From the IMG/VR virus record IMGVR_UViG_3300023179_000044, positions 39,879 through 103,878 of that record: a stretch of DNA of 64,000 bases. One strand, written 5' to 3'. Numbering within the stretch: the first letter of the stretch is position 1; every line of letters begins with the position of its first letter. The notes under the pieces were generated by a model, which made no database searches, was not told where the DNA came from, and was given only the letters and a program-made list of their open reading frames with translations. A program made the translations under genes and the position numbers. Source of the DNA: a virus. Shown here piece after piece: positions 35,665 through 55,368 of this stretch.

Positions 35665-35815
35665 CGAGCTACCCGTGTTACTAGGGCTATCGAATAGAAC
35701 TAGTAGTTAATACCTACTCAGGTGAAAAAATGAAAAATCATACTAGGCAGTTTTCATTTGGGCTGGCAACAAAAAACCCCCGATTTCTCGGGGGCTTTTG
35801 TCTAGGGGGACTTGA

Positions 35816-36214
35816 CTAATCTTCTTCGTCTTCGTCTTCGTCTTCGTCTTCGTCTTCACATTCACCCTCGCAACCCTCTACGCCACAAATGTAGCAAACT
35901 TCGTATTCAGTAGCACCTTGCTCAATAAGGCTCGTGTAGCCAGCGTTAGGGTCTTCGTGATTAGTCTCTACTGCCTGAATGAATTTTAGAGAGCAAGACT
36001 TCGCAAACCACTCTTTTAGTATGGAGAGCATTTCACTAGGGGTCTTCTCTTCGCAAGTGAAGAAACTATCTGGCTCTTCACCATAACCATAACCTTTTAC
36101 TTCGGCGACTTGCTCTTCGTCCATAAGAACATAGATTTTGTGGCAAGTGTCCCAAGTAATCGCCTTAGCGTCGTCTAGGGCGTATTCTACTTCGTCCCAG
36201 TCTATAACTGCCAT
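35816..36214 (-). CDS. Acidic hypothetical protein with Cys cluster and (ED)n tail
   Basis: Own promoter, GATAGG RBS and terminator; (TCTTCG)n at 35820-35857. Confidence 0.75.
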   Translation of the reverse strand: MAVIDWDEVEYALDDAKAITWDTCHKIYVLMDEEQVAEVKGYGYGEEPDSFFTCEEKTPSEMLSILKEWFAKSCSLKFIQAVETNHEDPNAGYTSLIEQGATEYEVCYICGVEGCEGECEDEDEDEDEDEED

Positions 36215-36407
36215 TTCGGTTTTCCTATCTGTTTAGTAACCCTTGTTGGCTACATACTTACTATAACCCTTACTGCCGACATTTGTTCCAACTTCTAATC
36301 AAAAATTAGTAGTTACTGGAAAAAATGAAAAATGTTATTTAGGCTTTTATTTTTTCTGGGCAAAAAATAACCCCCGATTTCTCGGGGGCTATCTGTGAAG
36401 TTTTTGA

Positions 36408-36761
36408 TTACAGGGTTTTTAGGTAATCGTAAAGGGTTTCCCTAATCGTAGCAAAATACGCTTCTGGATAGGCTTCCTTCATCATCTCTCGGTCAAAATG
36501 AGTGTTACGACCATTGACCTTCTTGACGACTACCACGCCACCGATAGTGCCTTCTACGAAGTCACCTAAGATTTCTCTTAGGGCTAGTTCAGCAAGTTCC
36601 TTCTGCTCTTTTGCTAGTGCTTCTGCTTTCTTAGCGTTCCTAAACTGGTTTAGGATTTCTTGGGCTTCTGGGGATAGTTCTAGTGATACTGACTTTGTTG
36701 CCTTTGTTGCCTTTTTTGCTGGGGCTGACTTTTCAGCCTTCTCTATTTTTTCTTTTGGCAT
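36408..36761 (-). CDS. Hypothetical protein, paralog of 41035-41376
   Basis: Near-identical C-terminus KKVNGRNTHFDRE.MKEAYPEAYFATIRETLYDYLKTL. Confidence 0.8.
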   Translation of the reverse strand: MPKEKIEKAEKSAPAKKATKATKSVSLELSPEAQEILNQFRNAKKAEALAKEQKELAELALREILGDFVEGTIGGVVVVKKVNGRNTHFDREMMKEAYPEAYFATIRETLYDYLKTL

Positions 36762-36935
36762 TTTTTTCCTTTGTTAGTTTTTCGGCTGGTTGCCGTGTTA
36801 CTAGGCTACGATACACCACCGACATAGAGCAACACTAATAGCAGTTTTTTTGTATCTACTGGAAAAAATGAAAAATGTTATTTAGAGTTGCTGGCTAAAA
36901 ACTTGGGGCTAAGTCTATTGACCTAGCCCCAGATT

Positions 36936-37115
36936 TTATCTAAAACTTTTTATTAGTTTGTAGATGGCAGTTAGGGGTCTGCTCTTACGCCTATGACGAC
37001 CACCTGACTTATCTAGCATTTTGTAAGACCAGTTTTGAGTTTTATACGAAACTTTGAAAGATAGTCCGTGTATTGCTCTTAGCAACTTGTATGCCAAATA
37101 GTATGCCAGTTTCAT
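36936..37115 (-). CDS. Small basic hypothetical protein
   Basis: ATGA-coupled to 37112-37366; start revised. Confidence 0.5.
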   Translation of the reverse strand: MKLAYYLAYKLLRAIHGLSFKVSYKTQNWSYKMLDKSGGRHRRKSRPLTAIYKLIKSFR

Positions 37116-37366
37116 TTGACCGATACCTTTTCCCACTGGTCTTTGTTATCAACTAACTCTTTTACATCTAGCGAGATTTGATACCACGCTTGGAATAGCA
37201 TTAGACCATAAACATCTAGGGTTAGACCAGTTGAGCCATTGTAGAGATAACCCTTTGGCAGTTCCAGCGTTGCTAGACCATCACTATAAAAAATAGTTAT
37301 GCCATTATCTTTTGCTAGGTTTATAGTCTTTACTATGTCCCCAGTTCCAAATGTTTTCTTAGCCAT
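37112..37366 (-). CDS. Hypothetical protein
   Basis: GATAGG RBS and promoter upstream. Confidence 0.65.
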   Translation of the reverse strand: MAKKTFGTGDIVKTINLAKDNGITIFYSDGLATLELPKGYLYNGSTGLTLDVYGLMLFQAWYQISLDVKELVDNKDQWEKVSVK

Positions 37367-37551
37367 TTGAGTTTGTTCCTATCTTTTAGGGGGTCTGCTG
37401 GTTGCTGACCCGTGTTATCACTCTACACCTAAATAGAAAAACACCACTACTTTTACTTAGTTTTTTAGAACTACTGGAAAAAATGAAAAATAGTTCTGGC
37501 ACTCATCTAATCAAAAAATACCCCGTCAAACTGACGGGGCATTTTTGCGAC

Positions 37552-37782
37552 CTAACTATTCAGGCTATTCATTAGGTCAAACATTATCCAGCAAGGCTCA
37601 CACTTGACGGACTTACTGGCTTGACTTGGACTAGGGGGATTAGATTTGAGATTACGACCACAAAGAGAGATTACAGGCTCTAAGGGCTTACCAGTTTCAT
37701 CTAAGGCTACAAGATGTCTAATGGACTTAGGGGGTCTAGTTCCAGTTGTATCTGGCGAGATGTCTGTTAGGGCTTGGCTCAC
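37552..37782 (-). CDS. Small Cys/His hypothetical protein
   Basis: H...LCG...CEPC pattern; GTGA-coupled. Confidence 0.55.
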   Translation of the reverse strand: MSQALTDISPDTTGTRPPKSIRHLVALDETGKPLEPVISLCGRNLKSNPPSPSQASKSVKCEPCWIMFDLMNSLNS

Positions 37783-38009
37783 TTGGCTTCACACTCCCAG
37801 CAAGCAGGGGAGTAATCACTATAAAGTGATACCCCGTGTTCGCAGTAATCGGTTTTACGCTTGCGTTCCAGAACTTCGGACATCTGGTCTATCATAGCCA
37901 GCAAGCGTTCAGGGTTGCCACCCAGAGAGAGTTGGCGTTGGGCTTCTTGGATAGCATAGCCCAGAGTTTCGGCAGAGTAGTTAGCGTAGGGGTTGCTAGG
38001 TGTAGTCAT
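37779..38009 (-). CDS. Small hypothetical protein with C-terminal CEH...CWEC
   Basis: Tiled in the unit; start revised to follow the 38011 stop. Confidence 0.6.
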   Translation of the reverse strand: MTTPSNPYANYSAETLGYAIQEAQRQLSLGGNPERLLAMIDQMSEVLERKRKTDYCEHGVSLYSDYSPACWECEAK

Positions 38010-38010
38010 C

Positions 38011-38154
38011 TTAGTTGTCGCTTTCATCTAGGGTCATTTCGACTTCGGTTAGGTGGCACTCTCGGCATAACTGGGAGTTGCTATCGGGGGCTAGGGTTGG
38101 GAACACTTTACCAGCGATAAAGTTTCCACAGTCGGCACAAATTGGGGTGGTCAT
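38011..38154 (-). CDS. 47-aa zinc-finger-like protein (not in the ORF track)
   Basis: MTTPICADCG...LCRECH with GATAGG RBS directly after a PafBC-type promoter. Confidence 0.6.
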   Translation of the reverse strand: MTTPICADCGNFIAGKVFPTLAPDSNSQLCRECHLTEVEMTLDESDN

Positions 38155-38306
38155 TGAGTTCCTATCTATCGGGGGGCTTGCTCGTTGCTTGCCCGTGTTG
38201 CCAGCCTAGCAAATACCACCGACATCATCTACACTTCTCACCAACTTTTCACCAAAGAGTTCCTGGTACTGGAAAAAATGAAAAATCTTATTTGGAAATT
38301 CTAAGT

Positions 38307-38655
38307 AAAAAAACTTCCCCTAGTATCCGCAGGGATTTCTAACTAGGGGAAGTTTCGGGCTATCGCTTGGAGATAGGATTTGGGCAAGGTATAACAAGCG
38401 ATAACCCTAGTGAGTTTGTAAGACCTGCCCTTACTCTTAGGGGGCGACCCTAAGCGACCTAATCAGTATGCCTACTGACTTGACTAACTCTCCCGACCTT
38501 GTAGATGTCTGCTCTGTGTATTTGTGGAAACCGACTAACCCGACCTTATAGATGTCTGCTCTGTGTTTCCTGATTCGGCGAACTCTTCCTAGTCAACTGA
38601 TTCGCCCTGACTCGCTAGTTTCCAACAATACTTACCTAGGAAGTAAGTGGACAAC
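38307..38655 (-). ncRNA. Putative ~350-nt structured non-coding RNA occupying its own unit
   Basis: Own box (38718), promoter TTGCGT-N16-TATTCT (38662-38689) and terminator; no credible ORF; at least 6 hairpins and a 28-nt direct repeat. Confidence 0.7.
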
Positions 38656-38803
38656 AAGATAAGAATACAGGTTTTTATGATTTACGCAACTTTTCACGAA
38701 AGTTTTTTGTATTCACTGGAAAAAATGAAAAATCTTATCTAAGCGATTTTTTGGCTAAAAAAATAAGTCCCCGATTTTCAGGGGACTTACTTTTTAGATT
38801 TGT

Positions 38804-39151
38804 CTAGGAGACACCGATTACTGACTTTATCCGTGTTATCTGGTTTTCGGTTAGGCTCTTGGTTTCGCCATTGTCGTCTGTTCCACCTGTAATAACTGCG
38901 TCTCCGACAATAATGTCTGTTTTGCCATAAGACATTTCCCAGAGTTTCGTTGCTAGAAAGTTGAAAGGCAGTCCAGTTAGTTTACCTTCCTCATTTATCC
39001 AGAGAGTTAGTCCAGCGAGTTCTTGGTCTAAATCTACTGCTTCTATCCAACCTGCTACTGCTTTACTTAGGAAATCATACTCCTTAGAGTTCTCTACCTG
39101 CTCGGTAGAAACTCCACCATCAGCCTTGATAACTAATACTTGCTTAGTCAT
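38804..39151 (-). CDS. DUF3846-like protein
   Basis: V.GWIEAV...W.NEEGKL.GLP.N..AT...IVGD.V.TG. Confidence 0.8.
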   Translation of the reverse strand: MTKQVLVIKADGGVSTEQVENSKEYDFLSKAVAGWIEAVDLDQELAGLTLWINEEGKLTGLPFNFLATKLWEMSYGKTDIIVGDAVITGGTDDNGETKSLTENQITRIKSVIGVS

Positions 39152-39359
39152 TTTGACCTGCCTATCTGTTTTGGTAGCCCGTGTTGACTACATAAGTAAT
39201 CTACTACTATCAACCGACATTTGTTCCAACTTCTAACTAAGTTTTGTATCTACTGGAAAAAATGAAAAATCTTATTTAGACATTTTGCTTCTAGTTCATC
39301 TGGGCAAAAAATAAACCCCTAGATTTTTGGTCTAGGGGTCTATTTATTTTTGAGTTGAT

Positions 39360-39473
39360 TTAGAGCCTGTCCCTGCTCTGCTTGCTCTGCTTGATGTCCC
39401 TGCTAATGCCACCGATAACTGATAACACTGATAGCACTAAATAAACACCAATAAAGGCGTATTGCCACCACAT
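39360..39473 (-). CDS. 37-aa membrane peptide
   Basis: TAATG-coupled; MWWQYAFIGVYLVLSVLSVIGG. Confidence 0.5.
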   Translation of the reverse strand: MWWQYAFIGVYLVLSVLSVIGGISRDIKQSKQSRDRL

Positions 39474-39715
39474 TAGTTCCACTCCCCTAATGCTCTTAGC
39501 ATTTCGTTAGGTGAAACTTTTAGGGCAACGCATAACTTAGCAAGTGTATCTGCTGGAAGTTGGCGTTGCTTGTGGAAGTATCTGCTAAGGCTGGACTTTT
39601 GTAGTCCTGTTGCGATAGCAAACTGATTTAGCGACTTATAGCCACGCTTAGAATACTGGGCGACAAACCACTCCCAAGTAATCTCACTCTGGCTCTTGAC
39701 TTTTGCTTTTGGCAT
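39473..39715 (-). CDS. XRE-family HTH regulator
   Basis: SLNQFAIATGLQKSSLSRYF..QR.L....L.KLC.AL.VSP. Confidence 0.8.
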   Translation of the reverse strand: MPKAKVKSQSEITWEWFVAQYSKRGYKSLNQFAIATGLQKSSLSRYFHKQRQLPADTLAKLCVALKVSPNEMLRALGEWN

Positions 39716-39913
39716 CTATCTCTCCTATTTTTGAGTTGGTCTATTTGACCTACTAACCACATTACACCAGTTTCCCGAAAAGCAACACCCGTGTTATGAG
39801 TTTTTGTATCTACTGGAAAAAATGAAAAATCTTATTTAGGATTTCAGTTGTTAGTTTGTTTGGGATAAAAATAACCCCCTAGATTTAGGGGGCTACTTTT
39901 TTAGGGGGGGGGT

Positions 39914-40228
39914 CTATCTGGACAATAGGGCGATAAATCGTCTAATGGTCTTTTTATCCGTGTTTTGTTCTAGGTATCTCAACACGCTATCAACTGGCAG
40001 ATTTCGGGCTATTCTGCCGACTAATACTGATGTGGTTTGGCTAATGTATGGTGTGTGGAAATACATAATCTCACTGGTTCGGGTGTTGTAGTCTAAGATT
40101 TTGGTTTTCCAGTGTGTTATCTGGTAGATGTCCCCTAACTGCTCGGCAGTTATGGTTTGGTTGTAGTTTGTAAAGGGGGCAAGGTTTTTGATTTGTTCCC
40201 CGATTTCGTGGTTTGGTAGGCGTTTCAT
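39914..40228 (-). CDS. Hypothetical protein
   Basis: ATGA-coupled; Y....SQTTS motif. Confidence 0.65.
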   Translation of the reverse strand: MKRLPNHEIGEQIKNLAPFTNYNQTITAEQLGDIYQITHWKTKILDYNTRTSEIMYFHTPYISQTTSVLVGRIARNLPVDSVLRYLEQNTDKKTIRRFIALLSR

Positions 40229-40398
40229 TGGGACATCTCCACTAATACAATAGCGTTACGAAGTTCGGCTATACGGGCTTTGACTAGGGTAATCTGTTTT
40301 TTCTCGGTTAGCGTTTCTAGTTCAGCAATTAGTACTTGCTCACGCTTTTTCAGATGGGCTAATGGGTTGATAACCATTGGCAGTTTATTTTCTGTCAT
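40225..40398 (-). CDS. Small coiled-coil hypothetical protein
   Basis: Start revised to lie downstream of the promoter at 40443-40464. Confidence 0.55.
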   Translation of the reverse strand: MTENKLPMVINPLAHLKKREQVLIAELETLTEKKQITLVKARIAELRNAIVLVEMSQ

Positions 40399-40623
40399 TT
40401 CAGTTTCTCTATCTCTAAGGGTAGCCGTGTTGCTACTCATCAACTATAACCCTAACAACTGACAAAAGTTCTGACTATCTGACAACTACTGGAAAAAATG
40501 AAAAATGTAATCATAGGTTTCTGGCTTCTGGGCTGGTTTGGATTTGATTTGGATAAAGAAACCCCCCCTGAAACCCAACTTGGACAGGGGGGGTTTTTGA
40601 GTGTGGCAGACACTCGGCTGGAT

Positions 40624-40836
40624 TTACTTGACTTTGACCCAACGGCAAGTCGTAGCGAGCAAGTTATCGTAATCGCCACTTGTGGCTTCTACTCTATACT
40701 GCTCAATAAGTTCTGGCGACACCTTAGCGTCTTTCATTGCTCGCATTACACGAGCAAGAATAGCAAAGGCATTTCCATCTTCACCGACTAACTTGACGGC
40801 TTTGACTTCTGGCAACTTTACAGACATCTCTAACAC
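40624..40836 (-). CDS. Hypothetical phage protein (LVGEDGNAFAIL...SGDYDNLL)
   Basis: Motif familiar from small phage/MGE proteins; own unit. Confidence 0.75.
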   Translation of the reverse strand: MLEMSVKLPEVKAVKLVGEDGNAFAILARVMRAMKDAKVSPELIEQYRVEATSGDYDNLLATTCRWVKVK

Positions 40837-41034
40837 CCCACTTCCCTATCTCTAAGGTAGCCCCGTGTGGCTACATAAGTAATCTACACTTTCCCACCGA
40901 CATACCCCAACACTTTTCACCAAGATTTAGTATCTACTGGAAAAAATGAAAAATGTGTATCTCTAATCTTGCGATTTTCTGCTAAAAAAATAAACTCCCC
41001 TAGATTTAGGGAAGTTTATTTTTTTTGGTCGGTG

Positions 41035-41376
41035 TTAGAGAGTTTTCAGGTAGTCGTATAGAGTTTCCCGAATAGTTGCGAAGTAGGCTTCTGGATAAGC
41101 CTCTTTCATTAGTTCTCGGTCAAAGTGGGTGTTTCTGCCATTGACTTTTTTCAGGACTACGACACCATTGATGGTGGCTTCTAGGCACTCTCCTAGCAAC
41201 TCACGCAGGGCGAGTTCTGCTTGCTCTTTGTCTGCTTTGGCTTGGGCTTCGGCTTTTTTGGCATTACGGAAACTGGTTAGCAACGCCATACCCTCTGGCG
41301 AGAGTTCTAGCGAGTTGGATTTCTTGGCAGTTTTTTTAGTGGTCTGCTTTACACTTTCAGTTTTAGTTTTTGGCAC
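41035..41376 (-). CDS. Hypothetical protein, paralog of 36408-36761
   Basis: Shared sequence; promoter TTGTAA-N17-TACACT upstream. Confidence 0.8.
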   Translation of the reverse strand: MPKTKTESVKQTTKKTAKKSNSLELSPEGMALLTSFRNAKKAEAQAKADKEQAELALRELLGECLEATINGVVVLKKVNGRNTHFDRELMKEAYPEAYFATIRETLYDYLKTL

Positions 41377-41493
41377 TTTTTATCCTTTGTTAGTTTCGGG
41401 GTTATTCCCGTGTTATCAGTGTAGCCTAATAATCAAGATTTTACAAATAAACTCCCTAAGATTTTTAGGGAGTTTATTTGACTACTTGATTTT

Positions 41494-41652
41494 TTAGTAA
41501 TCGCTCTCGTCTGTAAAGTCGGCAGACATAGCCAACTCGCCTCTGGCGTTCATCTCGCTTTGAGAAACAACCTCATCTTTATCGCAGATGTGCTCTTGGC
41601 TCGCAGGGTAAGAAACCCAACCCTCGCAGGTCTCGCAGTATTCGTGTATCAT
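41494..41652 (-). CDS. 52-aa acidic Cys/His protein (not in the ORF track)
   Basis: MIHEYCETCEGW...HIC; GATAGG RBS; terminator follows. Confidence 0.55.
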   Translation of the reverse strand: MIHEYCETCEGWVSYPASQEHICDKDEVVSQSEMNARGELAMSADFTDESDY

Positions 41653-41850
41653 TTTTCACCTCTTTCCTATCGTGTTCCCAAACTAGCACTAAAACGGATC
41701 TCCATAAAGAAAAAAACTAGCAAGTTGCTAATCACTGGAAAAAATGAAAAATGTTATTTAGGATTTCCTAGTTTAGTTCTGGGCTAGATAAAGCAAAGGG
41801 CTAGACTACAAAAGTAATCTAGCCCTAAGTTCGCTAGGAGATAGGGGAAA

Positions 41851-42334
41851 CTAGCGAAACCTTCTCGGTGTTCGTAATCTACGATAAACCGAGTATTGAC
41901 CTATTACATAACCAGCGACCAGACAGGCAACAGCAAGCGTGATAACTGCTATCAACTCAATAAGATTAGACATCACTTCCCCCTTTCGCTAATCGCCAAT
42001 ACCAAAGCACCAAAGATTAGGATTAGAGCCAGAGAGCCACCTATAACTAAACTTTCCGTGTTCATAAAATAAAACCCTGTTATTAGAGAGTAGCACCCTA
42101 ACGCCATTAGTAAATACTTCATTACTTATCTTTTCCTATCTTTACAGCGTCTAAGGCAAACCAAATAGATACCACTACACCAAGAACCAGACCATTAGAC
42201 CAAACTTCATCTATGGTGTGAGCCTGACCAGCACCATTGGCAACCAGTAAAGCGTAAGTGATAACCCAAGCACCAGCAACTAGGGGAGTGATTAGCAACC
42301 CTGCCAATGCTCTAAAAAATACATACTTATTCAT
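41851..42334 (-). CDS. Three coupled small membrane-protein genes (42122-42334, 41973-42122, 41851-41973)
   Basis: Hydrophobic ORFs with stop/start overlaps. Confidence 0.6.
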
Positions 42335-42526
42335 TTCAGTTCCTATCTATCAAGTAGCCTGTGTTGGCTACATAAATAATTTATACCCAAATAGCAAAAA
42401 ACTCAACAAGCAACAAAAAAATAACTATCTACTGGAAAAAATGAAAAATGTAATCTAGGGTTCGGTGTTTTCTGGGCTGGACAAAAAAATACCCTGCCAC
42501 TTGGACAGGGTATTTTTAGTTTTTAT

Positions 42527-42919
42527 TTAGTAGCAATAAAGGCAGGTTGAGCCATAACAGGCGTGTTCATCAGCGTATCGTTCAGGGCAGATTTCTCTGG
42601 CTTGTTCGTGTATTTGGATAGATAACTTTTCTAGCAACCTTTTTACCTGCCACATAGATTTTAGGATTTCATCTATCGTGTTTTGGGTCTGCTCTGGCAT
42701 CTCAACTAACAGGGCAGGTTCGCCATTGGTATCAAGCGTTAGGGGCAAGTTCAGCAACTCATCTCTATACTTCTCGACCTTGCGAATTATGGTGTCTATT
42801 TCGCTGGTGTCTTGGCTGGTGTCGTAAAGAATAGCACCATAGGGGCTTTCTAGGATTTCCACCTGCTCTGCTAGTTTTTCTAGGGCGATAGCGTTGCTCT
42901 CTGCTAGGTTCTCTTTCAC
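42527..42919 (-). CDS. Hypothetical protein with C-terminal Cys cluster
   Basis: GATAGG RBS; terminator follows. Confidence 0.6.
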   Translation of the reverse strand: MKENLAESNAIALEKLAEQVEILESPYGAILYDTSQDTSEIDTIIRKVEKYRDELLNLPLTLDTNGEPALLVEMPEQTQNTIDEILKSMWQVKRLLEKLSIQIHEQAREICPERYADEHACYGSTCLYCY

Positions 42920-42927
42920 TGGGTTTC

Positions 42928-43128
42928 CTATCTCTCGGTGTTCTCGGTGTTCTTGCTTTCAGCAAGGATTTCTTGGGTTCTAGCCAAAATAACTTTTATC
43001 TGCTCTGGCGTTAGGTGAGCAAAAATAAAGCCATAAGCGTATGGATAAACTACTTCATCGCTTTTACCTGCTAACCTAAGGTTTTCTATGACCTGAATAA
43101 TCGGGTCAATGGTGGTCTGGTCTGCCAT
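42928..43128 (-). CDS. Hypothetical protein
   Basis: GATAGG RBS before the revised ATG at 43128. Confidence 0.6.
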   Translation of the reverse strand: MADQTTIDPIIQVIENLRLAGKSDEVVYPYAYGFIFAHLTPEQIKVILARTQEILAESKNTENTER

Positions 43129-43320
43129 AATCGGTGTCCTATCTGTCGGGGGCTTTTCCATAAAACAACTATAACCCTAACCACTGACGAAGCTTCACTA
43201 CTTTTTATCAAAAAAAAATAGATACTGGAAAAAATGAAAAATGTTATTACTGCTTTTTTTCTTGGACAAAAAATAAACCCCCCTAAGTTCAGGGGGGAGT
43301 ATCTTGATAACTAGGCTAGA

Positions 43321-43734
43321 TTAGTCATCTAAGGCTATTTCAGCGACCTCTAAGGTAAAGGTTGCCCAATACTCATCATGGCTAGACCTAACTACCTCTA
43401 ACACGCTGTAATCATCATTAGAGTAAAAGCGAAGTGTGAAGTCGCTATCTAGGCTAAGGTCGCTAATCAAGTTTTCAGGGTTGCTAATTTTATAGCCAGA
43501 GCGTCTATCCCAATTTAGGTTTTTAGCGTTGATTAGAATTGGAGTTTTCAGTTCATAAGAATTGGCAGTCATCCACTTTTCCAGCAAGTCAAACTTGATG
43601 TTATCTAAGTCATCTTGCCAGCAACCATAGCAGTCTTCACTAGGTTTTGATGTTTTAGTTTCTTCATCATAATCCTCACAAGAGCAAGTGTCGCTAAGTG
43701 TATAGCGAAGCGTTAGTTCAGTTTTAGTTCCCAT
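43321..43734 (-). CDS. Acidic hypothetical protein (CSC...CYGCW...SSHD)
   Basis: Own unit with AGGAG RBS. Confidence 0.7.
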   Translation of the reverse strand: MGTKTELTLRYTLSDTCSCEDYDEETKTSKPSEDCYGCWQDDLDNIKFDLLEKWMTANSYELKTPILINAKNLNWDRRSGYKISNPENLISDLSLDSDFTLRFYSNDDYSVLEVVRSSHDEYWATFTLEVAEIALDD

Positions 43735-43979
43735 AATAATCTCCTAAGTAAGTTTTGGCAGTTGCCATAAATAGAGGCTAGCAAACTTTATAAAAATAAC
43801 TCGCAACTTGGATAACTTTTTGATAACTTTTTTTCTTTATTTATTATCTAGTGGAAAAAATGAAAAATAGTTAGTAAGGTTTTTGTTCCCTTTTAGCAAC
43901 TTATCAAAATAAGATGTATTCTGCTCTAAGTCCCCCCTAAATAATCTAATAATGGAAAAAATGAAAAATAATCTAGCAA

Positions 43980-46881: not shown

Positions 46882-47084
46882 TTTTCGTTTTCCTTTCGCT
46901 AGGGTTATTTATTTGATAACTGAAATCTACCAAACAAACTTCCAAAAACGCAACTTATTTCATAACTTTTTGATAAACATTTTTCTTGCTTTGGTTATTA
47001 GTGGAAAAAATGAAAAATCTTTTCTTGACATTTTTGGGGAAAAAGTTAGTTTTCCCTTATGGGAAAAACTAACGATTAGAAATA

Positions 47085-47282
47085 CTATTCAGTTTTAGTT
47101 TCAGGTTCATCATCACCAAAATCCACCAAGTCATAGGCGAGTATCTGGCGACCTACCTTGTCGTAGATGACTTCATAAATCTCTCCGTCATCTCCATTTG
47201 CTTCGGCTTCCGTCTTTGCTTCCAAGAGCAAGGCAAGCAGTAGGTTTGCTTCTGCTTCTGTTAGGCGTTTAGGGTCTTTCAT
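47085..47282 (-). CDS. Small acidic hypothetical protein
   Basis: ORF ending just before a terminator. Confidence 0.5.
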   Translation of the reverse strand: MKDPKRLTEAEANLLLALLLEAKTEAEANGDDGEIYEVIYDKVGRQILAYDLVDFGDDEPETKTE

Positions 47283-47350
47283 CTGCTATCCGTTAGTTGT
47301 TGGTCTGGTCTAGTCTGGTCTAAGGTCTATCCGTCAGGTCTGGGCAACTA

Positions 47351-47641
47351 CTATGCGAGCCGACTTGGTTGGCTGTCCGTCAAAAGTTGCTCGGCTGTAT
47401 CTGGCACTCTAAATCCCATACGCAAGCCGACTATCACTACAAGTTCAGCCGTGTCCATACCAAGACACTTGGCGATTTCATTTAGAACTTCACTACTCGC
47501 TTCTTTTCTACCCTGTTCTAGTTCCCAAAGGTAGTTATGTGAAATCCGTGCCTGTGATTTGTTTATGGTTTCTCGCAGAGTTAGTTGGTTCTTGTATCGG
47601 TGTTCGGAGATAACTTCTCCTAATGCTTGCCTGAATAACAT
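47351..47641 (-). CDS. ClgR-like XRE-family transcription regulator
   Basis: LFRQALGEVI...R....LTLRE....A.IS..YL.ELEQGRKEASSEVL..IA..L resembles actinobacterial ClgR. Confidence 0.75.
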   Translation of the reverse strand: MLFRQALGEVISEHRYKNQLTLRETINKSQARISHNYLWELEQGRKEASSEVLNEIAKCLGMDTAELVVIVGLRMGFRVPDTAEQLLTDSQPSRLA

Positions 47642-47822
47642 TTGTTAGTCCAAGTCCTTTCCGTGTTTTGAGTTGTATTCGTCAATAGCCTTACGAACTT
47701 CCACAGCGTAAGCAGGGTGTCGTGCCATAGACATCAGTAGTTTTTTCTTTTCCGTGCTGGTTAGAAAAATCCAGCGAAAGCGATACCAGAGTGTAATGAG
47801 CGTGTCTTTCATAATCTTTTCC

Positions 47823-48305
47823 TTACCTAATGAATACTACTGCTACTAATCCAAAATACACCAGATAGATAAATGGGGCAAGTCTGCCACCAATAATCTC
47901 TCGCCTACTACGCCACATAACGAGATACACACTTCCTATTACAAATGCCATAGATACAAGTGGCAATACTAGCCAGACCCAAGCGAACTTCCAAGATAGA
48001 GATAGACCCATAACTACAAATAACTTTACATCACCCATACCAATACTTTCCCATTTAGCGTGTATGTAAGTGAACACAGCAAGTAATACCACTCCAAAAA
48101 TAAGTGGCATAACTAATCCCCATAGCCACTCACCAGATACAACTGCGTAAGTAATGGCAGAGCCTAGCCAGAGCCAGATAGTAGGTAGCGTGTATTTGTT
48201 AGGAACTCTATTTTCCATAAAGTCCCAAATCAGTATTGGGATAGCAACTACGCATAAGTAGATAGCAGGAAGCGAAGCGATTATTTGTTGTTGTTGTGTA
48301 TTCAT
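47823..48305 (-). CDS. Prepilin peptidase-like (A24) membrane aspartic protease; leaderless start at 48305
   Basis: WDF...RVPN and GMGDVKL catalytic Asp motifs; multiple TM helices. Confidence 0.8.
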   Translation of the reverse strand: MNTQQQQIIASLPAIYLCVVAIPILIWDFMENRVPNKYTLPTIWLWLGSAITYAVVSGEWLWGLVMPLIFGVVLLAVFTYIHAKWESIGMGDVKLFVVMGLSLSWKFAWVWLVLPLVSMAFVIGSVYLVMWRSRREIIGGRLAPFIYLVYFGLVAVVFIR

Positions 48306-48501
48306 AAATCCCACTATACAAGTTAGGTGCGACATTTTACAAATCTTTTTTGGCGTGTTTTATTATTTAGTGGAAAAAATGAAAAATCTTATGAGCCAAA
48401 AAAACTAAAAAAAAACGCTGGTAGATAAACGAGAAAATCTACCAGCATTTTTTCACTTAGAAAGGAGTGATTATTTATTTATGGGTGTTGCTTGGTTCTG
48501 G

Positions 48502-48873
48502 TTAGAGAACATCAACTCGTAGAGTTGGCTCGCCAGCACCTTTGGCGACCCTGTAAGGTTCTAGCAGAGAGTAAAGTTCAGGATTTTCTCTCTCCAACTT
48601 ATCAAGGTCAAGTTTGGCAGGACTAGGGATAAGTTTGATAGACAATAAACGCTTACCCTTAGCGTCAGTTGCTACCAAATCAGATGTGATAGAGCCAACA
48701 GCGTCAAGAATAGCCTGTCTTGCTTGGTCAGACATTTCCTTTGCTTGCTTACCTAAATCACGACCATTACGCAGGTTTGCTACCTGCTTTTGTATGGCTG
48801 GTTTTAGAACTACTACCTGTGGGGTAGAAGTGCTAATGCTTGTAGTGCTTTGGTTCTTAGTTGCGTTTCCCAT
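48502..48873 (-). CDS. Hypothetical protein, distant relative of the 36408/41035 paralogs
   Basis: Helix, then AILDAVG...LD.DKLERENPELY pattern. Confidence 0.6.
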   Translation of the reverse strand: MGNATKNQSTTSISTSTPQVVVLKPAIQKQVANLRNGRDLGKQAKEMSDQARQAILDAVGSITSDLVATDAKGKRLLSIKLIPSPAKLDLDKLERENPELYSLLEPYRVAKGAGEPTLRVDVL

Positions 48874-48977
48874 TTGGAGTTCCTTTCGTTAGATTACCTT
48901 TGGGTGTATTGCTCTAATAGTAAATCACGATTTCTAAAATCTCGCAAGTTTATTTGATAACTTTTTGATAAACATTT

Positions 48978-49335
48978 TTAGGGAGTTTCTACCTGCTGTG
49001 GCTCGCCACACTCATAACAAGTTATGTAGCCAAGTCCGTCCCCAACAGGTGTTATCTCAAAAGTATCTACTGCTTTTAGTCCACACTCCGAGCAGTTGAT
49101 TTCAGTTTCCAGCGTCAGGGCTGTCTTGCTAGTCCGTTGGTTGCTCATACTCGTCCCAGATGTCTTGTCCGTCAATAAGGCTAAGGTCAGACCCGTTGTC
49201 CCACTTTACACGAATAGTCTTAGACCCCCACGGGTCTATGTATTCACCACGCTTTACTCCAAGCGAGCCGACTTTTAGATTTGTGTAGGGGTCGTCAGTA
49301 TGGACGAGCCGAACTCTGATTATTTGTTCCGTCAT
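48978..49335 (-). CDS. Two small genes: 49129-49335 (DUF4314-like) and 48978-49148 (zinc ribbon)
   Basis: RVRLVH.DDPY..L..G..G....D..G..I.VKWDNGS.L.LI.G.D; CSEC...CYEC. Confidence 0.65.
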
Positions 49336-50135
49336 TAGTTATCCGTTTCTGGTATCGGGTATAAACGAACTCCGTTTTCATCTTTGACTATGATAGTGGA
49401 GAACTCATCTACTACTAAACTATCCACCTGTTTATCTGCTAGTTCCCACGCCTGTTCAGGATTTTCGGCTATGACTTTGTATGTCCGTGTAATCTCAACA
49501 AAGAAATCTTTTACTTTTCTTGGGCAGTCCTCATACCAGTTTTCAGTTTCCTCGTCCCAAGCACAGACACACCCGTCCTCGTTATCTCGTTCCACATAAT
49601 CGGTATGGCAGTTTGGTATCCCCCACTCCTTAGTAAGCACTAACTCGCCATTTTCACCAGAGAACTCAGCCCCCCAGCCCTGTTCTTCTTCACTACAAAA
49701 CTCAAAAGATAGTTCTGGGTGTTGCTCTACCATAGCCACAAATACAGGTTCGGGAATAGACCAAGCAGTAGAGAAGTTCATAACAAGTTTAGAAGTTTTG
49801 TCTTTTTTGTTGATAGTGGTATTACCAGAATAATCGCAAGCGTCCCATTTGGTATCCCAGTTTTCATTGTTCCAGTTATACCAGTTGGTAGGAGTGTCGC
49901 CTTTTCTCTCGCCATTTTCCCAACCATTAGTGCCAAAGTATTCGCCACTCTCAACTGCGTCCTGTGGTGGTGCTACAAAGTTCCAGAACGACAACTCTAC
50001 TTCGGTGCTATAAACTACCTTGCCAGTTTCTTTATCAAAACTATCTGGGTGTGGGGCTGTTGCCTTGTCGTAAAAAGTTTCTACATCTTTGATAGAGCCA
50101 GTAATAGTTATGTTGTTATAGACCCAGTTAGGCAT
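49335..50135 (-). CDS. DUF1281/YubB ferredoxin-like domain protein
   Basis: MPNW..N.I.I.G...WY.W...NW.TKWD...F.TAWS.P...EE. Confidence 0.75.
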   Translation of the reverse strand: MPNWVYNNITITGSIKDVETFYDKATAPHPDSFDKETGKVVYSTEVELSFWNFVAPPQDAVESGEYFGTNGWENGERKGDTPTNWYNWNNENWDTKWDACDYSGNTTINKKDKTSKLVMNFSTAWSIPEPVFVAMVEQHPELSFEFCSEEEQGWGAEFSGENGELVLTKEWGIPNCHTDYVERDNEDGCVCAWDEETENWYEDCPRKVKDFFVEITRTYKVIAENPEQAWELADKQVDSLVVDEFSTIIVKDENGVRLYPIPETDN

Positions 50136-50147
50136 TTCTACTCCTTA

Positions 50148-50465
50148 TCATTGGAAGTTGTCCAGTATCTCTTGGATTTCACTTTCGCTAAGTCCACTCT
50201 CTATTCCACACTTACGGACATTTTCAGCAGTTTCCATTTTTAGCAACTCTAACCTGTCTGCTAGTGGGGTCATACCTATACGCTTGGCTATCTTTGTTGC
50301 TGTGATAACTGCTTTATAGGTGTCTGGGTCAGCGTAGCCAGTTTCAGTAAAACTTTCTACCAAAGCCCCAATGATACTTAGAGATAAAAGAAATAGCCCT
50401 GTTTCATCAGAGTTCTCAATGATTTCATCTAAATCTGGGTGGTCGTTTCCACAATGGTCGCACAT
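50148..50465 (-). CDS. Hypothetical protein; start revised
   Basis: GAAAGGACA RBS before MCDHCG. Confidence 0.65.
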   Translation of the reverse strand: MCDHCGNDHPDLDEIIENSDETGLFLLSLSIIGALVESFTETGYADPDTYKAVITATKIAKRIGMTPLADRLELLKMETAENVRKCGIESGLSESEIQEILDNFQ

Positions 50466-50742
50466 TTGTTTTGTCCTTTCAGTAGTGCGTTGTTTGTTTG
50501 TTGTGTCTAGTAAAGCATAGTTGATTTCTTTTAGCAAGTTATTTCATAAAGATTTTTTGGCGTGTCTGATTTGATAATGGAAAAAATGAAAAATCCTATT
50601 CAGCCATTTTTGGTAAAAGCGAACCCCTGATACCCGAAAGGACAGGGTTTGGTATCAGGGGTTCTAGTCCGTTTGTAGAGAACCTACTAGGAGTTGGGGG
50701 GACAAGGGCTTCGGCTCTATCCACAAACGGAGTTCTTATGTT

Positions 50743-52527
50743 CTAAACACCACCAACCTTTTCTAATGCTCTGGTGGCAGACTTACCGATAGTGTTGGCG
50801 ATTTCATTTACATCAAGTCCTGAAAGAACCACGCCATTATTTCCAACCAGAAGTGGTGGTGTATGGGCGTAGCAACCAGCAGGAACTATCCAAAGAACAG
50901 CCACGCCATTATCGGCACACATCTTTACAAACTCTTTGGCATTTCTAGTTTCGTCATCTGTGTATTGTCCGTCAGAAACTACAACCAACATACGAATACC
51001 AGAACCATAAAGTAAGTCTAGGTGTCCGTCTATTGCCTGAAAAGCCTGTCCAAAAACTTCTGTTCCGTCTGGGGCTGTCCAAACTGAAACCTGTTCTAAC
51101 TTTTGACCAAGTTTCAGAGTAGCAAAAACATCATTACCAAAATAGACCATACCAGTTCTAGCCTGAATACGCCTACCTGCTTCTGATAGAACCCAAGCAG
51201 TAGTAGCCATACTTTCCATAGCACCACTCATAGAGCCTGAAATGTCCACCATTACGCCAATAGTTAGTTCTGGGTCGTCAGTATGCTTACGCTTAGTTGC
51301 TCTCCACGCTGGTAGGTCAGAGTGAATACCCTTAGACTTCATAGCCAAGTTCTGAATAGCAACCCTAGTTTTTAGGCGACCCTGTGGAAATACCGACTTT
51401 ATTTCGGTAATAGACCTTTCACGATACTTTGCCTTTTCTAACATCTTGGAAAGACGAACAGCGTTTGCTCTTTCAGCAGGTTTAGGTGGTCGTTGATTTT
51501 CCAGTTGGGAACGACTAGAACTATCACCATTTCCAGTTGCGTTAGTAAAAACTTTACTGGCTTCTTTTTTGGACTTATTTCTTTGTTGCTGTTTGGAGTT
51601 ATGCTCTTGTAAAGTTTTGCTATCTTTTTCTTTGCCCTGTTGTTCGCCTAACTCTTTCTCAACATCACTAGCAGAGTTTTCTGTGTCTGTGTCCATAGCG
51701 TCAATGAGTTCTGTTCCAAACCCACTTTCGCCTTTTTCGCCTTTTTTGCCAGTTGGGAACTTACAGCCACCTTTTCCGTCTGGGTCAGCCTTGTCTAAAA
51801 GTTCTACCCACTTGGTAGCAAGTTCTGTTGCTCGCTTGATTTGGGAACACTCTAAACGCTGGAACTCATACCAGATAGAACGCAACTCGTCAAATAGTTC
51901 TTGACCAATAGCACTTATTACTTTGGAGTATGTAGAACTAACATCAGAGATTTTTAGAACGCCAGCGTCCACTCTTGCCATAGCCAAAGCACACGCAACA
52001 GCAGATAAGCGAACATCAGATAGGGCTTCCACGCTTGCTTCGTCCATACCTTGTAATGCTAGTTCCATAGCAGAACATCTTAGGAATACTTGATTTTCTG
52101 GCATAGCGATTACGCCAAATCTTTCTATTCTGCTTTCATCTAAAACTTGGAACGCCTGAAATACAGGTTCAGACATAGTGTCTAGTTTTGCTTGTTCCCA
52201 AATAGAAAATCTAGCGTGTAGTGCTTCGTGATAAATAATACCTGTGGCACTAGCCCACTCAAACTGATTACTTCTATCTCTCAAATCACCCACAAACTCT
52301 GGTGTTGCCCAAGTTCCAAAAGCAACTGGTATGTTGATTTCCATTTCAGCACTTGTCTTGATAAAGCAAGCAGTATGACCTATTCCTGCGTCAGAGCCAG
52401 CATAGACAACTATGTCGCCCCTGATAGCCCAGTTATTTACTACTTCTGCTATTTGCTTACAAGTTTCTAGCCACTCTTTCGGAGTTTCGCTAGTTCGTGT
52501 ATCTAATCTTGATACATAATGAGCCAT
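50743..52527 (-). CDS. HExxH metallopeptidase-like plus VWA domain protein (MoxR partner)
   Basis: IYHEALHARFS...LDE.RIE; MIDAS DISGSMS and VVSDG. Confidence 0.85.
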   Translation of the reverse strand: MAHYVSRLDTRTSETPKEWLETCKQIAEVVNNWAIRGDIVVYAGSDAGIGHTACFIKTSAEMEINIPVAFGTWATPEFVGDLRDRSNQFEWASATGIIYHEALHARFSIWEQAKLDTMSEPVFQAFQVLDESRIERFGVIAMPENQVFLRCSAMELALQGMDEASVEALSDVRLSAVACALAMARVDAGVLKISDVSSTYSKVISAIGQELFDELRSIWYEFQRLECSQIKRATELATKWVELLDKADPDGKGGCKFPTGKKGEKGESGFGTELIDAMDTDTENSASDVEKELGEQQGKEKDSKTLQEHNSKQQQRNKSKKEASKVFTNATGNGDSSSRSQLENQRPPKPAERANAVRLSKMLEKAKYRERSITEIKSVFPQGRLKTRVAIQNLAMKSKGIHSDLPAWRATKRKHTDDPELTIGVMVDISGSMSGAMESMATTAWVLSEAGRRIQARTGMVYFGNDVFATLKLGQKLEQVSVWTAPDGTEVFGQAFQAIDGHLDLLYGSGIRMLVVVSDGQYTDDETRNAKEFVKMCADNGVAVLWIVPAGCYAHTPPLLVGNNGVVLSGLDVNEIANTIGKSATRALEKVGGV

Positions 52528-52643
52528 TTGTTTTGTCCTTTCGTTTGGCTAGTAAAAGTAAATCATACATTTTTGTTTTCGTCAAGGGGTAGGGAGTGCT
52601 AAGTTTTTTACGCCTAGCACTCCCTATTTAGTAGGACGAACTA

Positions 52644-53651
52644 CTAAATCTTTGCTGGCTTACACTCATCATCACCGAATACTCTACGGAATACATCAGC
52701 GACAACTACTCTGTCTATTTCTGGGGCAGAAGCAAGCAAGTTTCCAATAGCCCACTTCATACCAAACAGATTAGCAACATCACGGAACGCAAGCAGTTCT
52801 CGCATTTGTGGCGACCAAGATACTTCACCTGCTAATCGCTTCTTAGACAGATTTTGACCTGCCGAAACTGCTGGTGCTGGAACGCCTAACTTCTTAGCAA
52901 GCGACCAGTCAGTAGTCATTTCTACTTGGATAGTGAAGCGAGATAGTAAAGGCTCGGACAAGCGAACACCAACAGCGTTAGGGTTGGTAGCACCTACTAC
53001 ATAAAAACCTTTCTTGGCTTTTACTATCCCCCTTTCTGGGTTGGCTGTGATTACAAGTTCATCTCTGCCGTCCATTAGACCATAGACCAAAGACATAACC
53101 TTTGGGTCAATAAGTCCAACTTCGTCAATAAGTAGAACTTTGCCCTGCTCTACTGCTTTGGTCAAAACTCCGTCCACCCACTCAAAACTTCCACTTGGAG
53201 TTTGGACATAGCCACCTAAGAAGTCAGAAACTTCGGTGTCGCCTGTTCCCAATAGGGTATAGAGTTCATCTGGGAAACTTGCTTCTACGAGAGCAGTTTT
53301 ACCACAACCTGCTTCACCATAGAGCAGAACATACTTACCATTTGCCCTAGCAGTTTTTAGAACTTCTATGTCGGAGTGTTCGCCCCACATACGAGAGTAG
53401 TAGTAATCACCATTTGGTCGTATGTATTTTTCGGCACTTACCATAGGTTCTACCACTTTTGTTCCAACCTTTGACTTTGTTATTGCTGTTCCTGCTTTTG
53501 CTCGCAAGTTTGCCCTAGCACTATTGGGCATTAGGGTTTCCATAATAGCAGGGATAGGCTCTGCTTTTGTGGAGTGTAGGACTACACCTTTGATTAGTGT
53601 TTCTAAATCTTTGTGTAGTTCTGAAATGTTTTTTATTTCTGTCTTTGCCAT
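52644..53651 (-). CDS. MoxR/CbbQ-type AAA+ ATPase; start revised to 53651
   Basis: GEAGCGKT, LLIDE, ATNP, LLSRF; adjacent to the VWA gene. Confidence 0.9.
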   Translation of the reverse strand: MAKTEIKNISELHKDLETLIKGVVLHSTKAEPIPAIMETLMPNSARANLRAKAGTAITKSKVGTKVVEPMVSAEKYIRPNGDYYYSRMWGEHSDIEVLKTARANGKYVLLYGEAGCGKTALVEASFPDELYTLLGTGDTEVSDFLGGYVQTPSGSFEWVDGVLTKAVEQGKVLLIDEVGLIDPKVMSLVYGLMDGRDELVITANPERGIVKAKKGFYVVGATNPNAVGVRLSEPLLSRFTIQVEMTTDWSLAKKLGVPAPAVSAGQNLSKKRLAGEVSWSPQMRELLAFRDVANLFGMKWAIGNLLASAPEIDRVVVADVFRRVFGDDECKPAKI

Positions 53652-53667
53652 TTTGATTTTGTCCTTT

Positions 53668-54180
53668 CTAAGATAAATAAACATCAACAGGAAAACCTGC
53701 GTCAGTTCTGGCTTTGGTTATTCTACGGATTAGAGCAGACGGAGTTTCGTGTTCTCTTATGTTTGATAGGTCTATGTTGCTTACTTCTACTACAAGTTTT
53801 CCTTGTAGTTTGGAGTAGCCATAAGAACCCTGCCTAACAACAGAAGCAACTACCTTTTCTACAAGGTCAGCAGTTATTTCAGTTGGATTTGCCTTTTCAT
53901 CTTTTGGCAAGTGGTGCTTAGTTTGCCATTGTCGTCTAGGCGACATCTTTCCAACAGCCCTGTATGTAAAGGCTACTGGAACTGCCTTACCCTTTTCATC
54001 TACACCAGCAGGGGTAATAATGATTTGGATAGTTTCTTTATCCCAAATGTGTTCAGGATTTGGCTTGATAAGTTCTAGGTAAAGACCCTTACCTACAACC
54101 TTTGGTGTTGCTGTTCCAGATTTTTCAGCAGTTGCTACTGCTTCTGCTGTTTCTGTATCTAGTGTTCCAAATGTTTCCAT
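53668..54180 (-). CDS. Hypothetical protein
   Basis: 170-aa ORF upstream of the AAA gene; promoter TTGACT-N16-TAAAGT. Confidence 0.65.
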   Translation of the reverse strand: METFGTLDTETAEAVATAEKSGTATPKVVGKGLYLELIKPNPEHIWDKETIQIIITPAGVDEKGKAVPVAFTYRAVGKMSPRRQWQTKHHLPKDEKANPTEITADLVEKVVASVVRQGSYGYSKLQGKLVVEVSNIDLSNIREHETPSALIRRITKARTDAGFPVDVYLS

Positions 54181-54288
54181 TTAGTTCGTCCTAACTTATT
54201 GGTTTATGTTGGACAGGATTATCCAACGAGTTCCACTTTACATCAACTTCTAATAAAGTCAAGTCCTAAGTGAAAAGTTTTTTGTTCG

Positions 54289-54864
54289 CTAATGGTGAAA
54301 ATCAACAGGGATTAGAAACTGCCTTTGTGGGGTTTCCTGAACACGCTTGTAAAAGTATTCCAAACTAGCGTCCCAGTTTTCTAAATCATAAATAGCAGTT
54401 TCAGAACACCACTCATTACTAAGAAGTAGCGATAGTTTTTTTATGTAATACATCACCATTGACTTCTTATAGTCGTTTTTATCTGGGTTATAGGGATAGG
54501 TAAATACATCTATACCTGCGTAATCAGTTCGTAGTGTTTTTCTAATGGCTTCTATTTCATTTATGCGATACCCTATAAAAGTAGTTATGACGCTATCAGC
54601 CAAAACAGGGTCGTCTGAAAAACATAAGTGATTTGGATTTTCAGATAAATCAACTTCCAACTTATTTTCTGCTCGTTGTTTTTGTTCTGGGGTCATAAAG
54701 ATTTCACCAGACCAGCGACCAGCGAAGTTTAGGTGGCTTGGGTTGCCACCTGCTTCGTGCCAGTCAGACCAGCGTGGCTCGCCATCTGAAAGTTTATCTG
54801 AAACGATACTAAATGCTTGTTCTGCGTTATCTGCTTCTACTAGCAGTAGTTGTATTGTGTGAAT
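54289..54864 (-). CDS. Hypothetical protein (WSDW...GRW...VDFH); probable ATT start
   Basis: Promoter at 54893-54921 and RBS at 54871-54877 point to ATT at 54862-54864. Confidence 0.6.
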   Translation of the reverse strand: MHTIQLLLVEADNAEQAFSIVSDKLSDGEPRWSDWHEAGGNPSHLNFAGRWSGEIFMTPEQKQRAENKLEVDLSENPNHLCFSDDPVLADSVITTFIGYRINEIEAIRKTLRTDYAGIDVFTYPYNPDKNDYKKSMVMYYIKKLSLLLSNEWCSETAIYDLENWDASLEYFYKRVQETPQRQFLIPVDFHH

Positions 54865-55050
54865 AGTAGTTCCTTTCGTAATGGATAGACAAAAGGTAGC
54901 ACAACTATTTATTAGACGCAAGTATTTTTTTAGATTTTTTCCAAATCATTATTTTTCATTTTTTCCCCCTAGCGAAAAAATCTTATGTAAGGTGTAAAAA
55001 CTTTTTATTATTCGTTAGTTGTTGGCAGAAGTCCTGCGTCTATTTTACTA

Positions 55051-55368
55051 CTAATCATTTTCATAGTCAAGGTCGTCAAACTCCTCATCAGCCATAAACA
55101 ACTGCTCAATTGACGGGACGCTGTATGAAGTAGTGGGGTTTACTACATCTACTATACATTCACCACATACAAACCACGGGGTATCCCGTTCATCAATTAG
55201 CACTGCGAATGGCACAAATGAAGCGTCCGTTAAATGTCCCACCTCATCTTCGCACGAAGCGCAGAGTAATCCGTTAAGCACGTCAGGTTCGACCAGGCCG
55301 GTTTGAACAGCAGTGTCCACGTCCCGGGCCGCTTCTAGCAGATGTAATTCAATTGACTTCATAATCAT
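55051..55368 (-). CDS. Acidic CxxC...CxxC protein
   Basis: Leaderless: TATTCT just upstream. Confidence 0.6.
   Translation of the reverse strand: MIMKSIELHLLEAARDVDTAVQTGLVEPDVLNGLLCASCEDEVGHLTDASFVPFAVLIDERDTPWFVCGECIVDVVNPTTSYSVPSIEQLFMADEEFDDLDYEND

Follow-up and report, generated by a model that had tools for sequence, protein, structure and literature searches.

Why should one block of a phage genome be almost free of four-base palindromes when the DNA on both sides of it carries them at ordinary frequency? The question was raised by a 64,000-nucleotide stretch of DNA (the window), which is the last 64 kb (positions 39,879-103,878) of the 103,878-bp IMG/VR contig IMGVR_UViG_3300023179_000044, here named G000. 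A preliminary description, made by eye, had stated that GATC, AGCT, TGCA, CATG, GTAC, GGCC, CCGG, TCGA, ACGT, CGCG, GCGC, AATT, TTAA and ATAT (the 14 palindromes) were nearly missing between 35.7 and 55.1 kb of the window, and had read this as avoidance of restriction sites in DNA that is exposed in the cell before protection is established. Our analysis favors an answer of the same kind. The block is probably the early host-takeover region of a large freshwater actinobacterial phage, made restriction-proof by selection as the first-exposed DNA, in a manner like that of T5.

All sixteen four-base palindromes were counted in 2-kb bins over the entire contig. From 35711 to 55107 (19,397 bp, no strand assigned), the 14 palindromes were observed 19 times against ~900-985 expected, the expectation being ~985 from flank density and 899 ± 26 when the dinucleotides of the block were shuffled. 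This depletion of ~50-fold is stronger than had been claimed. The density was 67-138 sites per 2 kb elsewhere in the contig and 0-10 in the block; no other 2-kb bin held fewer than 67 sites, and the block was the sole one of its kind, the other ~84 kb being normal. The 19 residual sites (AATT 12, TCGA 2, GTAC 2, GATC 1, AGCT 1, CATG 1) spanned 35982-44038, with all seven of the non-AATT sites at 38.0-43.4 kb, and a direct count gave zero copies over the 11.07 kb from 44042 to 55107. The nearest flanking palindromes were a TTAA at 35707 on the left and an AATT at 55108 on the right. These exact figures bear out the earlier estimate of 15-20 sites, mostly AATT, at 35.7-44.05 kb and none thereafter. 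They also leave the edges where they had been placed, at the first copy of a repeated box (35723-35738) and just past an inverted copy of it (54951-54966).

Codon usage, which had been named as a possible explanation, was excluded as the cause of the depletion. When synonymous codons were shuffled without change to the proteins or to the codon usage of the block, 539 ± 17 sites were expected in coding sequence and 10 were observed. The 5,841 nt of non-coding DNA in the block held nine. CTAG and TATA had both been described as retained; this was true of CTAG, which was slightly enriched (117 vs 83 from flank density), but not of TATA, which was reduced about threefold (42 vs 125). Just beyond the downstream edge, the 300 bp at 35400-35700 were unusually CTAG-rich, with ~10 copies.

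The scan was carried to 4-, 5- and 6-mers and to two-base dyads (inverted repeats of a two-base word) with 0-10 spacer bases. Counts of longer and interrupted palindromes had been suggested as a check; the purge did reach beyond four-base palindromes to many words, some of them asymmetric, while many dyads proved to be normal. With one spacer base only the AC, CC, GA, GC, GG, GT and TT dyads were purged (ACNGT, CCNGG, GANTC, GCNGC, GGNCC, GTNAC and TTNAA were near-absent), and with two only CC, CG, CT and GG (CTNNAG 0 vs 128 expected; GGNNCC, CCNNGG and CGNNCG also near-absent). At longer spacing, CAN6TG was counted once vs 53 expected and GAN6TC 10 times vs 91. Among asymmetric words, GGATG/CATCC, GCATC, GCTCC/GGAGC, CAATC/GATTG and GAATG were purged in both orientations and CCGC/GCGG was found once vs 48 expected; counts per orientation were 0/0 for CAATC, 0/0 for GCTCC, 0/2 for GGATG and 1/0 for CCGC. 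TGWCA and CGNCG were also avoided. A rule under which all dyads are avoided was rejected, since AGNCT, CTNAG overall, ACNNGT, GANNTC and GCNNGC occurred at normal frequency and long terminator hairpins were plentiful.

A pattern that is word-specific, strand-symmetric and indifferent to coding points to proteins that read words in double-stranded DNA. Most of the avoided words are what we take to be type II or type IIS sites listed in REBASE, such as those of HinfI, Fnu4HI, ScrFI, Sau96I, MaeIII, Tsp4CI, NlaIV, FokI, SfaNI and AciI. We know of no enzyme for ATAT, TGWCA, CGNCG, CAATC or GCTCC.

Relatives of the phage share the block and vary in the words that it lacks. A portal-based search of IMG/VR gave more than 590 related loci, several with the same depletion upstream of the portal gene, and three whole records (G001, G002 and G004) were examined. 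G004 (125.8 kb) has a 30-kb block at ~49.9-80.2 kb of its own sequence with only ~25 sites, and this independent domain has most of the extended list of avoided words in common with the present one. The complete record G001 (153.7 kb) has a 12-kb block with fivefold depletion, and G002 begins within its purged block. Gene order around and inside the block is conserved among relatives. A further 80 loci, anchored on an ATPase gene of the block and found by alignment of that ATPase, reduced to 59 distinct sequences. These displayed 36 avoidance profiles, with 0 to 14 of the 16 palindromes avoided; in each relative a given palindrome was either purged or near neutral, and the upstream flanks were normal throughout. 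TTAA, for example, was kept in L132, TCGA in L195, and CGCG and GCGC in L130. Avoidance of TTAA was seen in 43/59 relatives, of ATAT in 37/59 and of CTAG in 0/59, and the present phage stood at the extreme (14/16 avoided) alongside L117, L131 and G004. Such a mosaic argues against a single structural rule, and it would fit a varied, lineage-specific set of restriction enzymes. Avoidance of restriction sites is well supported by these results taken together, namely the specificity for words, the effect on both strands and in coding and non-coding DNA alike, and the word-by-word variation among relatives.

The edges of the block do not follow units of gene expression. On the upstream side the edge falls within the 3'-terminal part of a 105-aa ORF (55051-55368, minus strand), where palindromes stop 57 nt before the stop codon; in relatives it is placed 36-270 bp before the stop of the homologue (36-230 bp in G004, L131 and other strong avoiders). 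On the downstream side palindromes resume 13 nt past the last box, ahead of the core promoter of that unit. Box-driven units just outside the block on both sides (boxes 56320 and 35738) have ordinary palindrome content; on the upstream side this box lies at 56305-56320 (minus strand) and its unit runs from 56259 to 55051. Since the edges cut across functional units and the outside units are unpurged, early transcription alone does not define the block, and its boundary is probably a physical property of the DNA molecule.

The contig, with an estimated completeness of 61%, was affiliated with large Actinobacteria phages through its portal, large terminase and small-terminase-like protein. The portal was 71% identical to that of the lake metagenome-assembled Actinomycetia phage DSL-LC01, and 63% and 46% identical to those of two cultured phages, Microbacterium phage Pumpernickel and Arthrobacter phage Atuin. 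The large terminase was 62% identical to that of Pumpernickel. The Pumpernickel protein (L111, 27251-29614) is 787 aa long vs 460 aa here, with a ~270-aa insertion at residues 135-404 that is possibly an intein. WhiB genes, a marker of actinobacterial hosts, were present in the contig and its relatives, which points to a host among the Actinobacteria. Near-identical sequence recurred in sequencing runs from freshwater or lakes that belong to at least four studies (2011-2019). The block and the structural region had no megablast match among 50,697 phage records, and a search of metagenome contigs for exact copies of the edge sequence returned 0 matches. In DSL-LC01 (L112, OQ999401.1), positions 1-50000 were without a purged block; ATAT and TTAA were both at zero over these 50 kb (45-62% G+C), and its avoidance, of these two words only, appears to be genome-wide.

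What could purge a block and leave its flanks ordinary? In the course of infection that we propose, the block would lie unprotected in the cell at a time when restriction by the host is still in force, and lineages with a cuttable short site in it would be eliminated. Products of the block, or giant virion proteins injected with it, would neutralise restriction, and the rest of the genome would enter or become accessible only afterwards, hence its normal site frequencies. Giant multi-domain proteins of 3,612 and 2,593 aa are encoded beside the portal gene, and proteins of this kind are delivered along with the DNA by other phages. Selection by type II or type IIS-like restriction enzymes in the host population, exposure of this block ahead of the rest and the choice of entering end are all inferred. 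No DNA methyltransferases were found with three Pfam families in G000 or the complete G001, which makes self-methylation unlikely as the protector of the remaining genome.

Exposure of the block before protection is established would fit published work on T5- and T7-like phages. In T7-like phages and conjugative plasmids, selection against restriction-modification motifs is concentrated in the leading regions, which carry anti-defence genes as well, and in T7-like phages of Marinomonas a type I motif leads to restriction only from within the first-injected region (PMC12455610). As cited in the same paper, T5 mutants become sensitive to EcoRI once they have gained a site in the first-transferred DNA, and only there are restriction sites harmful to T5 (PMC12455610). 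The T5 record marks the terminal repeat as first-step-transfer DNA and has A1 and A2 read toward the entering end; at the inner end it places a gene-free injection stop signal (9140-10149). The T5 repeat is without GAATTC and has 66.9 four-base palindromes per kb, a normal density.

The present phage resembles T5 and BF23 in its small takeover genes, each with a strong promoter of its own (here predicted) and a terminator. As in T5, host restriction sites are scarce in this segment, with an effect here far stronger than in T5, and a long exact terminal repeat occurs at the matching position in its cultured relatives Pumpernickel and Atuin. Gene-free repeat regions at 43.75-44.5 kb here and at 78500-80230 in G004 are reminiscent of the T5 stop signal. 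It differs from T5 in having no homology to A1, A2 or dmp, in the purge of 14/16 palindromes and ~25 longer words over 19-30 kb, in contrast to the normal density of the T5 repeat, and in that two-step transfer and the repeat itself are here only presumed, with the purged block perhaps shorter than the repeat. Avoidance of restriction motifs in leading DNA is a likeness to T7-like phages and plasmids, if the block does enter first. In those systems one or a few motifs (type I in the Marinomonas phages) are avoided over a few kb, whereas here the purge of short type II-like words is near-complete; no Ocr, ArdA or similar family was detected in the present block.

Bacillus phage SPO1 carries its host-takeover module in a 13-kb terminal redundancy and protects its DNA with hydroxymethyluracil. 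As we understand that phage, its likeness to the present one is in having numerous short early operons, individually provided with promoters and terminators, and in the long terminal repeat that here is likely to enclose them; we know of no domain-limited palindrome purge in SPO1. Avoidance of restriction sites over whole genomes is familiar, as in the GATC-free Staphylococcus phage K, and was reportedly surveyed by Sharp in 1986, Rocha in 2001 and Rusinov in 2018. Counter-selection of type II palindromes is common to those cases and this one, but here it is limited to a single sharply bounded block. The concept of avoidance focused on leading DNA is known. Features for which the literature searched gave no description are the strength of the purge, the range of words and the length of DNA that it affects, its sharp edge within a gene and the mosaic of profiles across the family. 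No earlier description of a domain-limited purge of many palindromes was found in the literature searched, the coverage of which was incomplete.

Where the block lies in the DNA molecule can be judged from Pumpernickel and Atuin, which are true relatives. Both have exact terminal repeats, of 19,963 bp and 17,312 bp respectively, packed with small genes; their box and promoter system differs from the one here. Gene 1 of these phages, which lies 61 bp (Pumpernickel) and 18 bp (Atuin) from the physical left end, is homologous to a 320-aa protein of the window (57534-58496, minus strand) with a weak resemblance to small terminases. Three window proteins have homologues inside the Pumpernickel repeat, one of them in the block; they include the endolysin (56404-57252) and the product of ORF 49335-50135. 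Given repeats at the matching position and the 62% terminase identity, the block likely lies within a long direct terminal repeat.

By the same comparison the left end would be located at ~58.5-58.76 kb, ~3.5 kb outside the block, and the repeat would be ~22.9 kb long if its inner end is the 35.7-kb edge. An intergenic region at this place (58497-58757, no strand assigned), with at least four direct and inverted copies of ACTTT(T)CAAC, is a candidate left genome end or terminase recognition site. The preliminary description had put the entering end near 55.0 kb, and the comparison of gene 1 does not support this; its alternative, that the block is a collapsed long terminal repeat, gains indirect support from the repeats of these cultured relatives. 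The ends of Pumpernickel and Atuin had no sequence motif in common with the window. Assemblies of relatives are single-copy circles; the starts of relatives' contigs do not pile up at the domain edge but are scattered between a point ~2 kb upstream of the terminase-like gene and the interior of the endolysin gene, and are uninformative on termini.

Three geometries are possible. In one, the repeat would span 58.6-35.7 kb and entry would begin at the right end, making the block exactly the first 19.4 kb in, with a pause near 55.1 kb; transcription of the block would then be directed toward the entering end, as in T5, and this arrangement agrees with the comparison to Pumpernickel and Atuin. In another the repeat is the block itself, and in the third a terminus lies near 55.1 kb, as first proposed. 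The latter two would fit the far end of the G004 block, where a gene-free region of 1.7 kb (78500-80230; L100:18500-20230) contains dense short tandem and dispersed repeats and is similar to the T5 stop signal in both its position and its kind.

Several observations weigh against the account of a first-exposed, restriction-proofed early region. The repeats of the soil relatives Pumpernickel and Atuin had no palindrome depletion; together with T5, these unpurged repeats indicate that a terminal repeat alone does not yield a purge. If the ~58.6-kb end enters first, the first 3.5 kb to enter would carry ~200 ordinary sites, and the model then needs right-end-first entry, tolerated cuts in the redundant 3.5 kb or a shifted terminus. 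The gradient of residual sites, confined to 36-44 kb, lends itself to either interpretation. Homologues of T5 A1, A2 and dmp were not found by tblastn against G000, G001 and G004, apart from one 22-aa match at chance level, and none of the known anti-restriction families (Ocr, ArdA, ArdB/KlcA and others) was found by Pfam and/or PHROGs among the ~30 of ~34 block ORFs that were searched. Retention of CTAG and the purge of ATAT both fall outside the explanation.

Other explanations start from the same block. Restriction may have been the selecting force with no role for order of entry, if protection by base modification or a co-packaged coat misses the copy of the terminal repeat that is made by fill-in. 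The block does lie where relatives carry long terminal repeats, glycosyltransferase and DUF6421 genes adjoin it, and the giant multi-domain virion proteins are encoded nearby. Nevertheless, no DNA-modification pathway was identified, the methyltransferase search in G000 and G001 being negative, and hemi-modified DNA is usually resistant to restriction. To our knowledge there is also no precedent for modification that leaves out precisely one block bounded at one edge within a gene, and we consider this explanation unlikely. Still less weight was given to self-immunity, in which the block is proof against the phage's own early short-site nucleases and the rest of the genome enters after these are switched off. 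T5 degrades host DNA at the first-step-transfer stage (A1 annotation), and the ~34 genes of the domain, mostly of unknown function, leave room for such enzymes. But the avoided words number more than 30, and close relatives whose gene sets are largely homologous avoid different ones; moreover, most ORFs (60-170 aa) are small for a restriction endonuclease and no nuclease family was detected in the Pfam and PHROGs scans of the block ORFs, making this account improbable.

From the dense promoters and terminators of the domain, structure or expression might be suspected in place of restriction (cruciforms, RNA hairpins, RNase sites, very high transcription). Four-base palindromes cannot fold, however, and long terminator hairpins were kept; AGNCT, GANNTC, ACNNGT and other dyads were spared, yet asymmetric words were purged. 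With subsets of avoided words that vary by lineage, equal purging of non-coding DNA and of both strands, and unpurged box-driven units outside, we regard a cause of this type as very improbable. For an artefact of assembly, chimerism or synthesis no supporting point was found, and the recurrence of near-identical sequence across the freshwater studies, along with dozens of independent IMG/VR contigs in which a block of this kind occupies the same gene position, leaves it with almost no probability at all.

If selection on first-exposed DNA is the correct account, what does it imply for the clade? We suggest tentatively, and with less confidence than for the present phage, that a whole clade of freshwater actinophages has a 10-30-kb first-exposed segment, probably within a long terminal repeat, which records the restriction enzymes of its hosts. 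The list of purged words in each lineage would then be a list of the type II and type IIS specificities circulating in the host population, including words for which no enzyme is known (ATAT, TGWCA, CGNCG, CTNNAG as a class, CAN6TG, GAN6TC, CAATC and GCTCC). Restriction-modification specificities of uncultured freshwater Actinobacteria could be deduced in this way without culture, with candidates for new enzymes among them. The retention of CTAG (0/59 avoid it) would mean either a positive role yet to be recognised or a true lack of CTAG-cutting enzymes. The principle is known from single-site experiments in T5 and T7-like phages, and the present case would be its extreme form, a 19-30-kb segment nearly free of short restriction-type words beside ordinary DNA. 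Staged genome delivery, so far shown in T5 and in T7/N4-type coliphages, would be widespread in Actinobacteria phages and would extend to a large and ecologically abundant clade. The early-exposed segment and packaging type of uncultured phages would be recognisable from their sequence alone, and the ~34 small early proteins, together with a conserved ATPase/VWA pair, would become candidates for roles in anti-restriction or DNA transfer.

How is the block built? Its genes are all on the minus strand and are arranged in ~20-21 units, each with a hairpin-plus-T-run terminator, a box, a promoter-like core, a conserved leader hairpin and 1-3 small ORFs. A sequence search for the invariant box ATTTTTCATTTTTTCC (coding strand) gave 20 copies on the minus strand from 35723 to 50594, with highest coordinates at 50594, 48387, 47018, 46290, 45417, 43969, 43868, 43242, 42449, 41752, 40954, 40506, 39830, 39270, 38733, 38286, 37491, 36876, 36333 and 35738. 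In G004 a related box, TGTATTCGTTTTTTCC, is followed by TTGAC-N17-TAnAAT promoters. Promoters of the form TGTCGG(T/C)(G/A)-N8-TAnnnT, a candidate PafBC/RecA-NDp-like motif, were noted in units 40954, 39270, 38286, 36876 and 36333.

The inverted box at 54951-54966 (plus strand) lies immediately upstream of the domain's first promoter, as it does in L131, L117 and G004, with two inverted copies at the corresponding place in G004. It was considered as a driver of rightward transcription and rejected, since it adjoins a conserved leftward promoter in four phages. That first promoter (54893-54921, minus strand) is predicted to be sigma-70-like, with TTGCGTC, a 13-nt spacer and an extended -10 element, TGCTACCTT; L131 and L117 share its sequence, and G004 does so in part. 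A gene-free region at 43750-44500 (no strand assigned), with T-tract repeats phased at 9-10 bp and ~8 iterons of the GCGAGCCGT type, separates the zero sub-domain from the slightly leaky one. A similar iteron cluster occurs at 59.7 kb of G004, ~9.7 kb into its domain. The region might serve as an origin of replication or as a signal for a pause in entry, or it might be bent DNA.

Most of the ~34 ORFs of the block are small (mostly 60-170 aa) and many are acidic. The only family matches were to AAA_5, a faint VWA (CobT-like), two HTH proteins, DUF3846, a Peptidase_A24-like membrane protein and DUF1281_C. The first gene of the domain (54289-54921, minus strand) encodes ~190-210 aa of no known family and has homologues in G001 and several relatives. 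Its listed TTG start overlaps the -35 element of its own promoter, so the true start must be further downstream; the downstream ATG of relatives is CTG in the present phage, and the exact codon is uncertain. The most conserved gene of the domain encodes an AAA_5 (MoxR-type) ATPase (52644-53687, minus strand; Pfam AAA_5, E 6e-18) that is 66-70% identical in G001 and G004. It is paired with a gene for a 594-aa CobT-like protein with a faint VWA match (50743-52527, minus strand). The DSL-LC01 homologue of this protein is annotated as 'cobalamin biosynthesis protein', and a single-protein search of IMG/VR with it gave no relative. A membrane protein with a match to type IV prepilin peptidases is encoded at 47823-48335 (Peptidase_A24, E 2.5e-9). 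The last gene of the domain (35816-36214, minus strand) encodes a very acidic protein of 132 aa (pI 4.1) with an (E/D)n tail, 79% identical in G004, which might speculatively be viewed as a DNA mimic.

Adjoining the block on its downstream side, past the last box, are genes for a DUF6421 protein (33812-35176, E 1.7e-208) and a family-2 glycosyltransferase (32923-33672). Both genes are absent from that position in G004, and the pair may be an inserted module, possibly for modification of a surface structure or of DNA.

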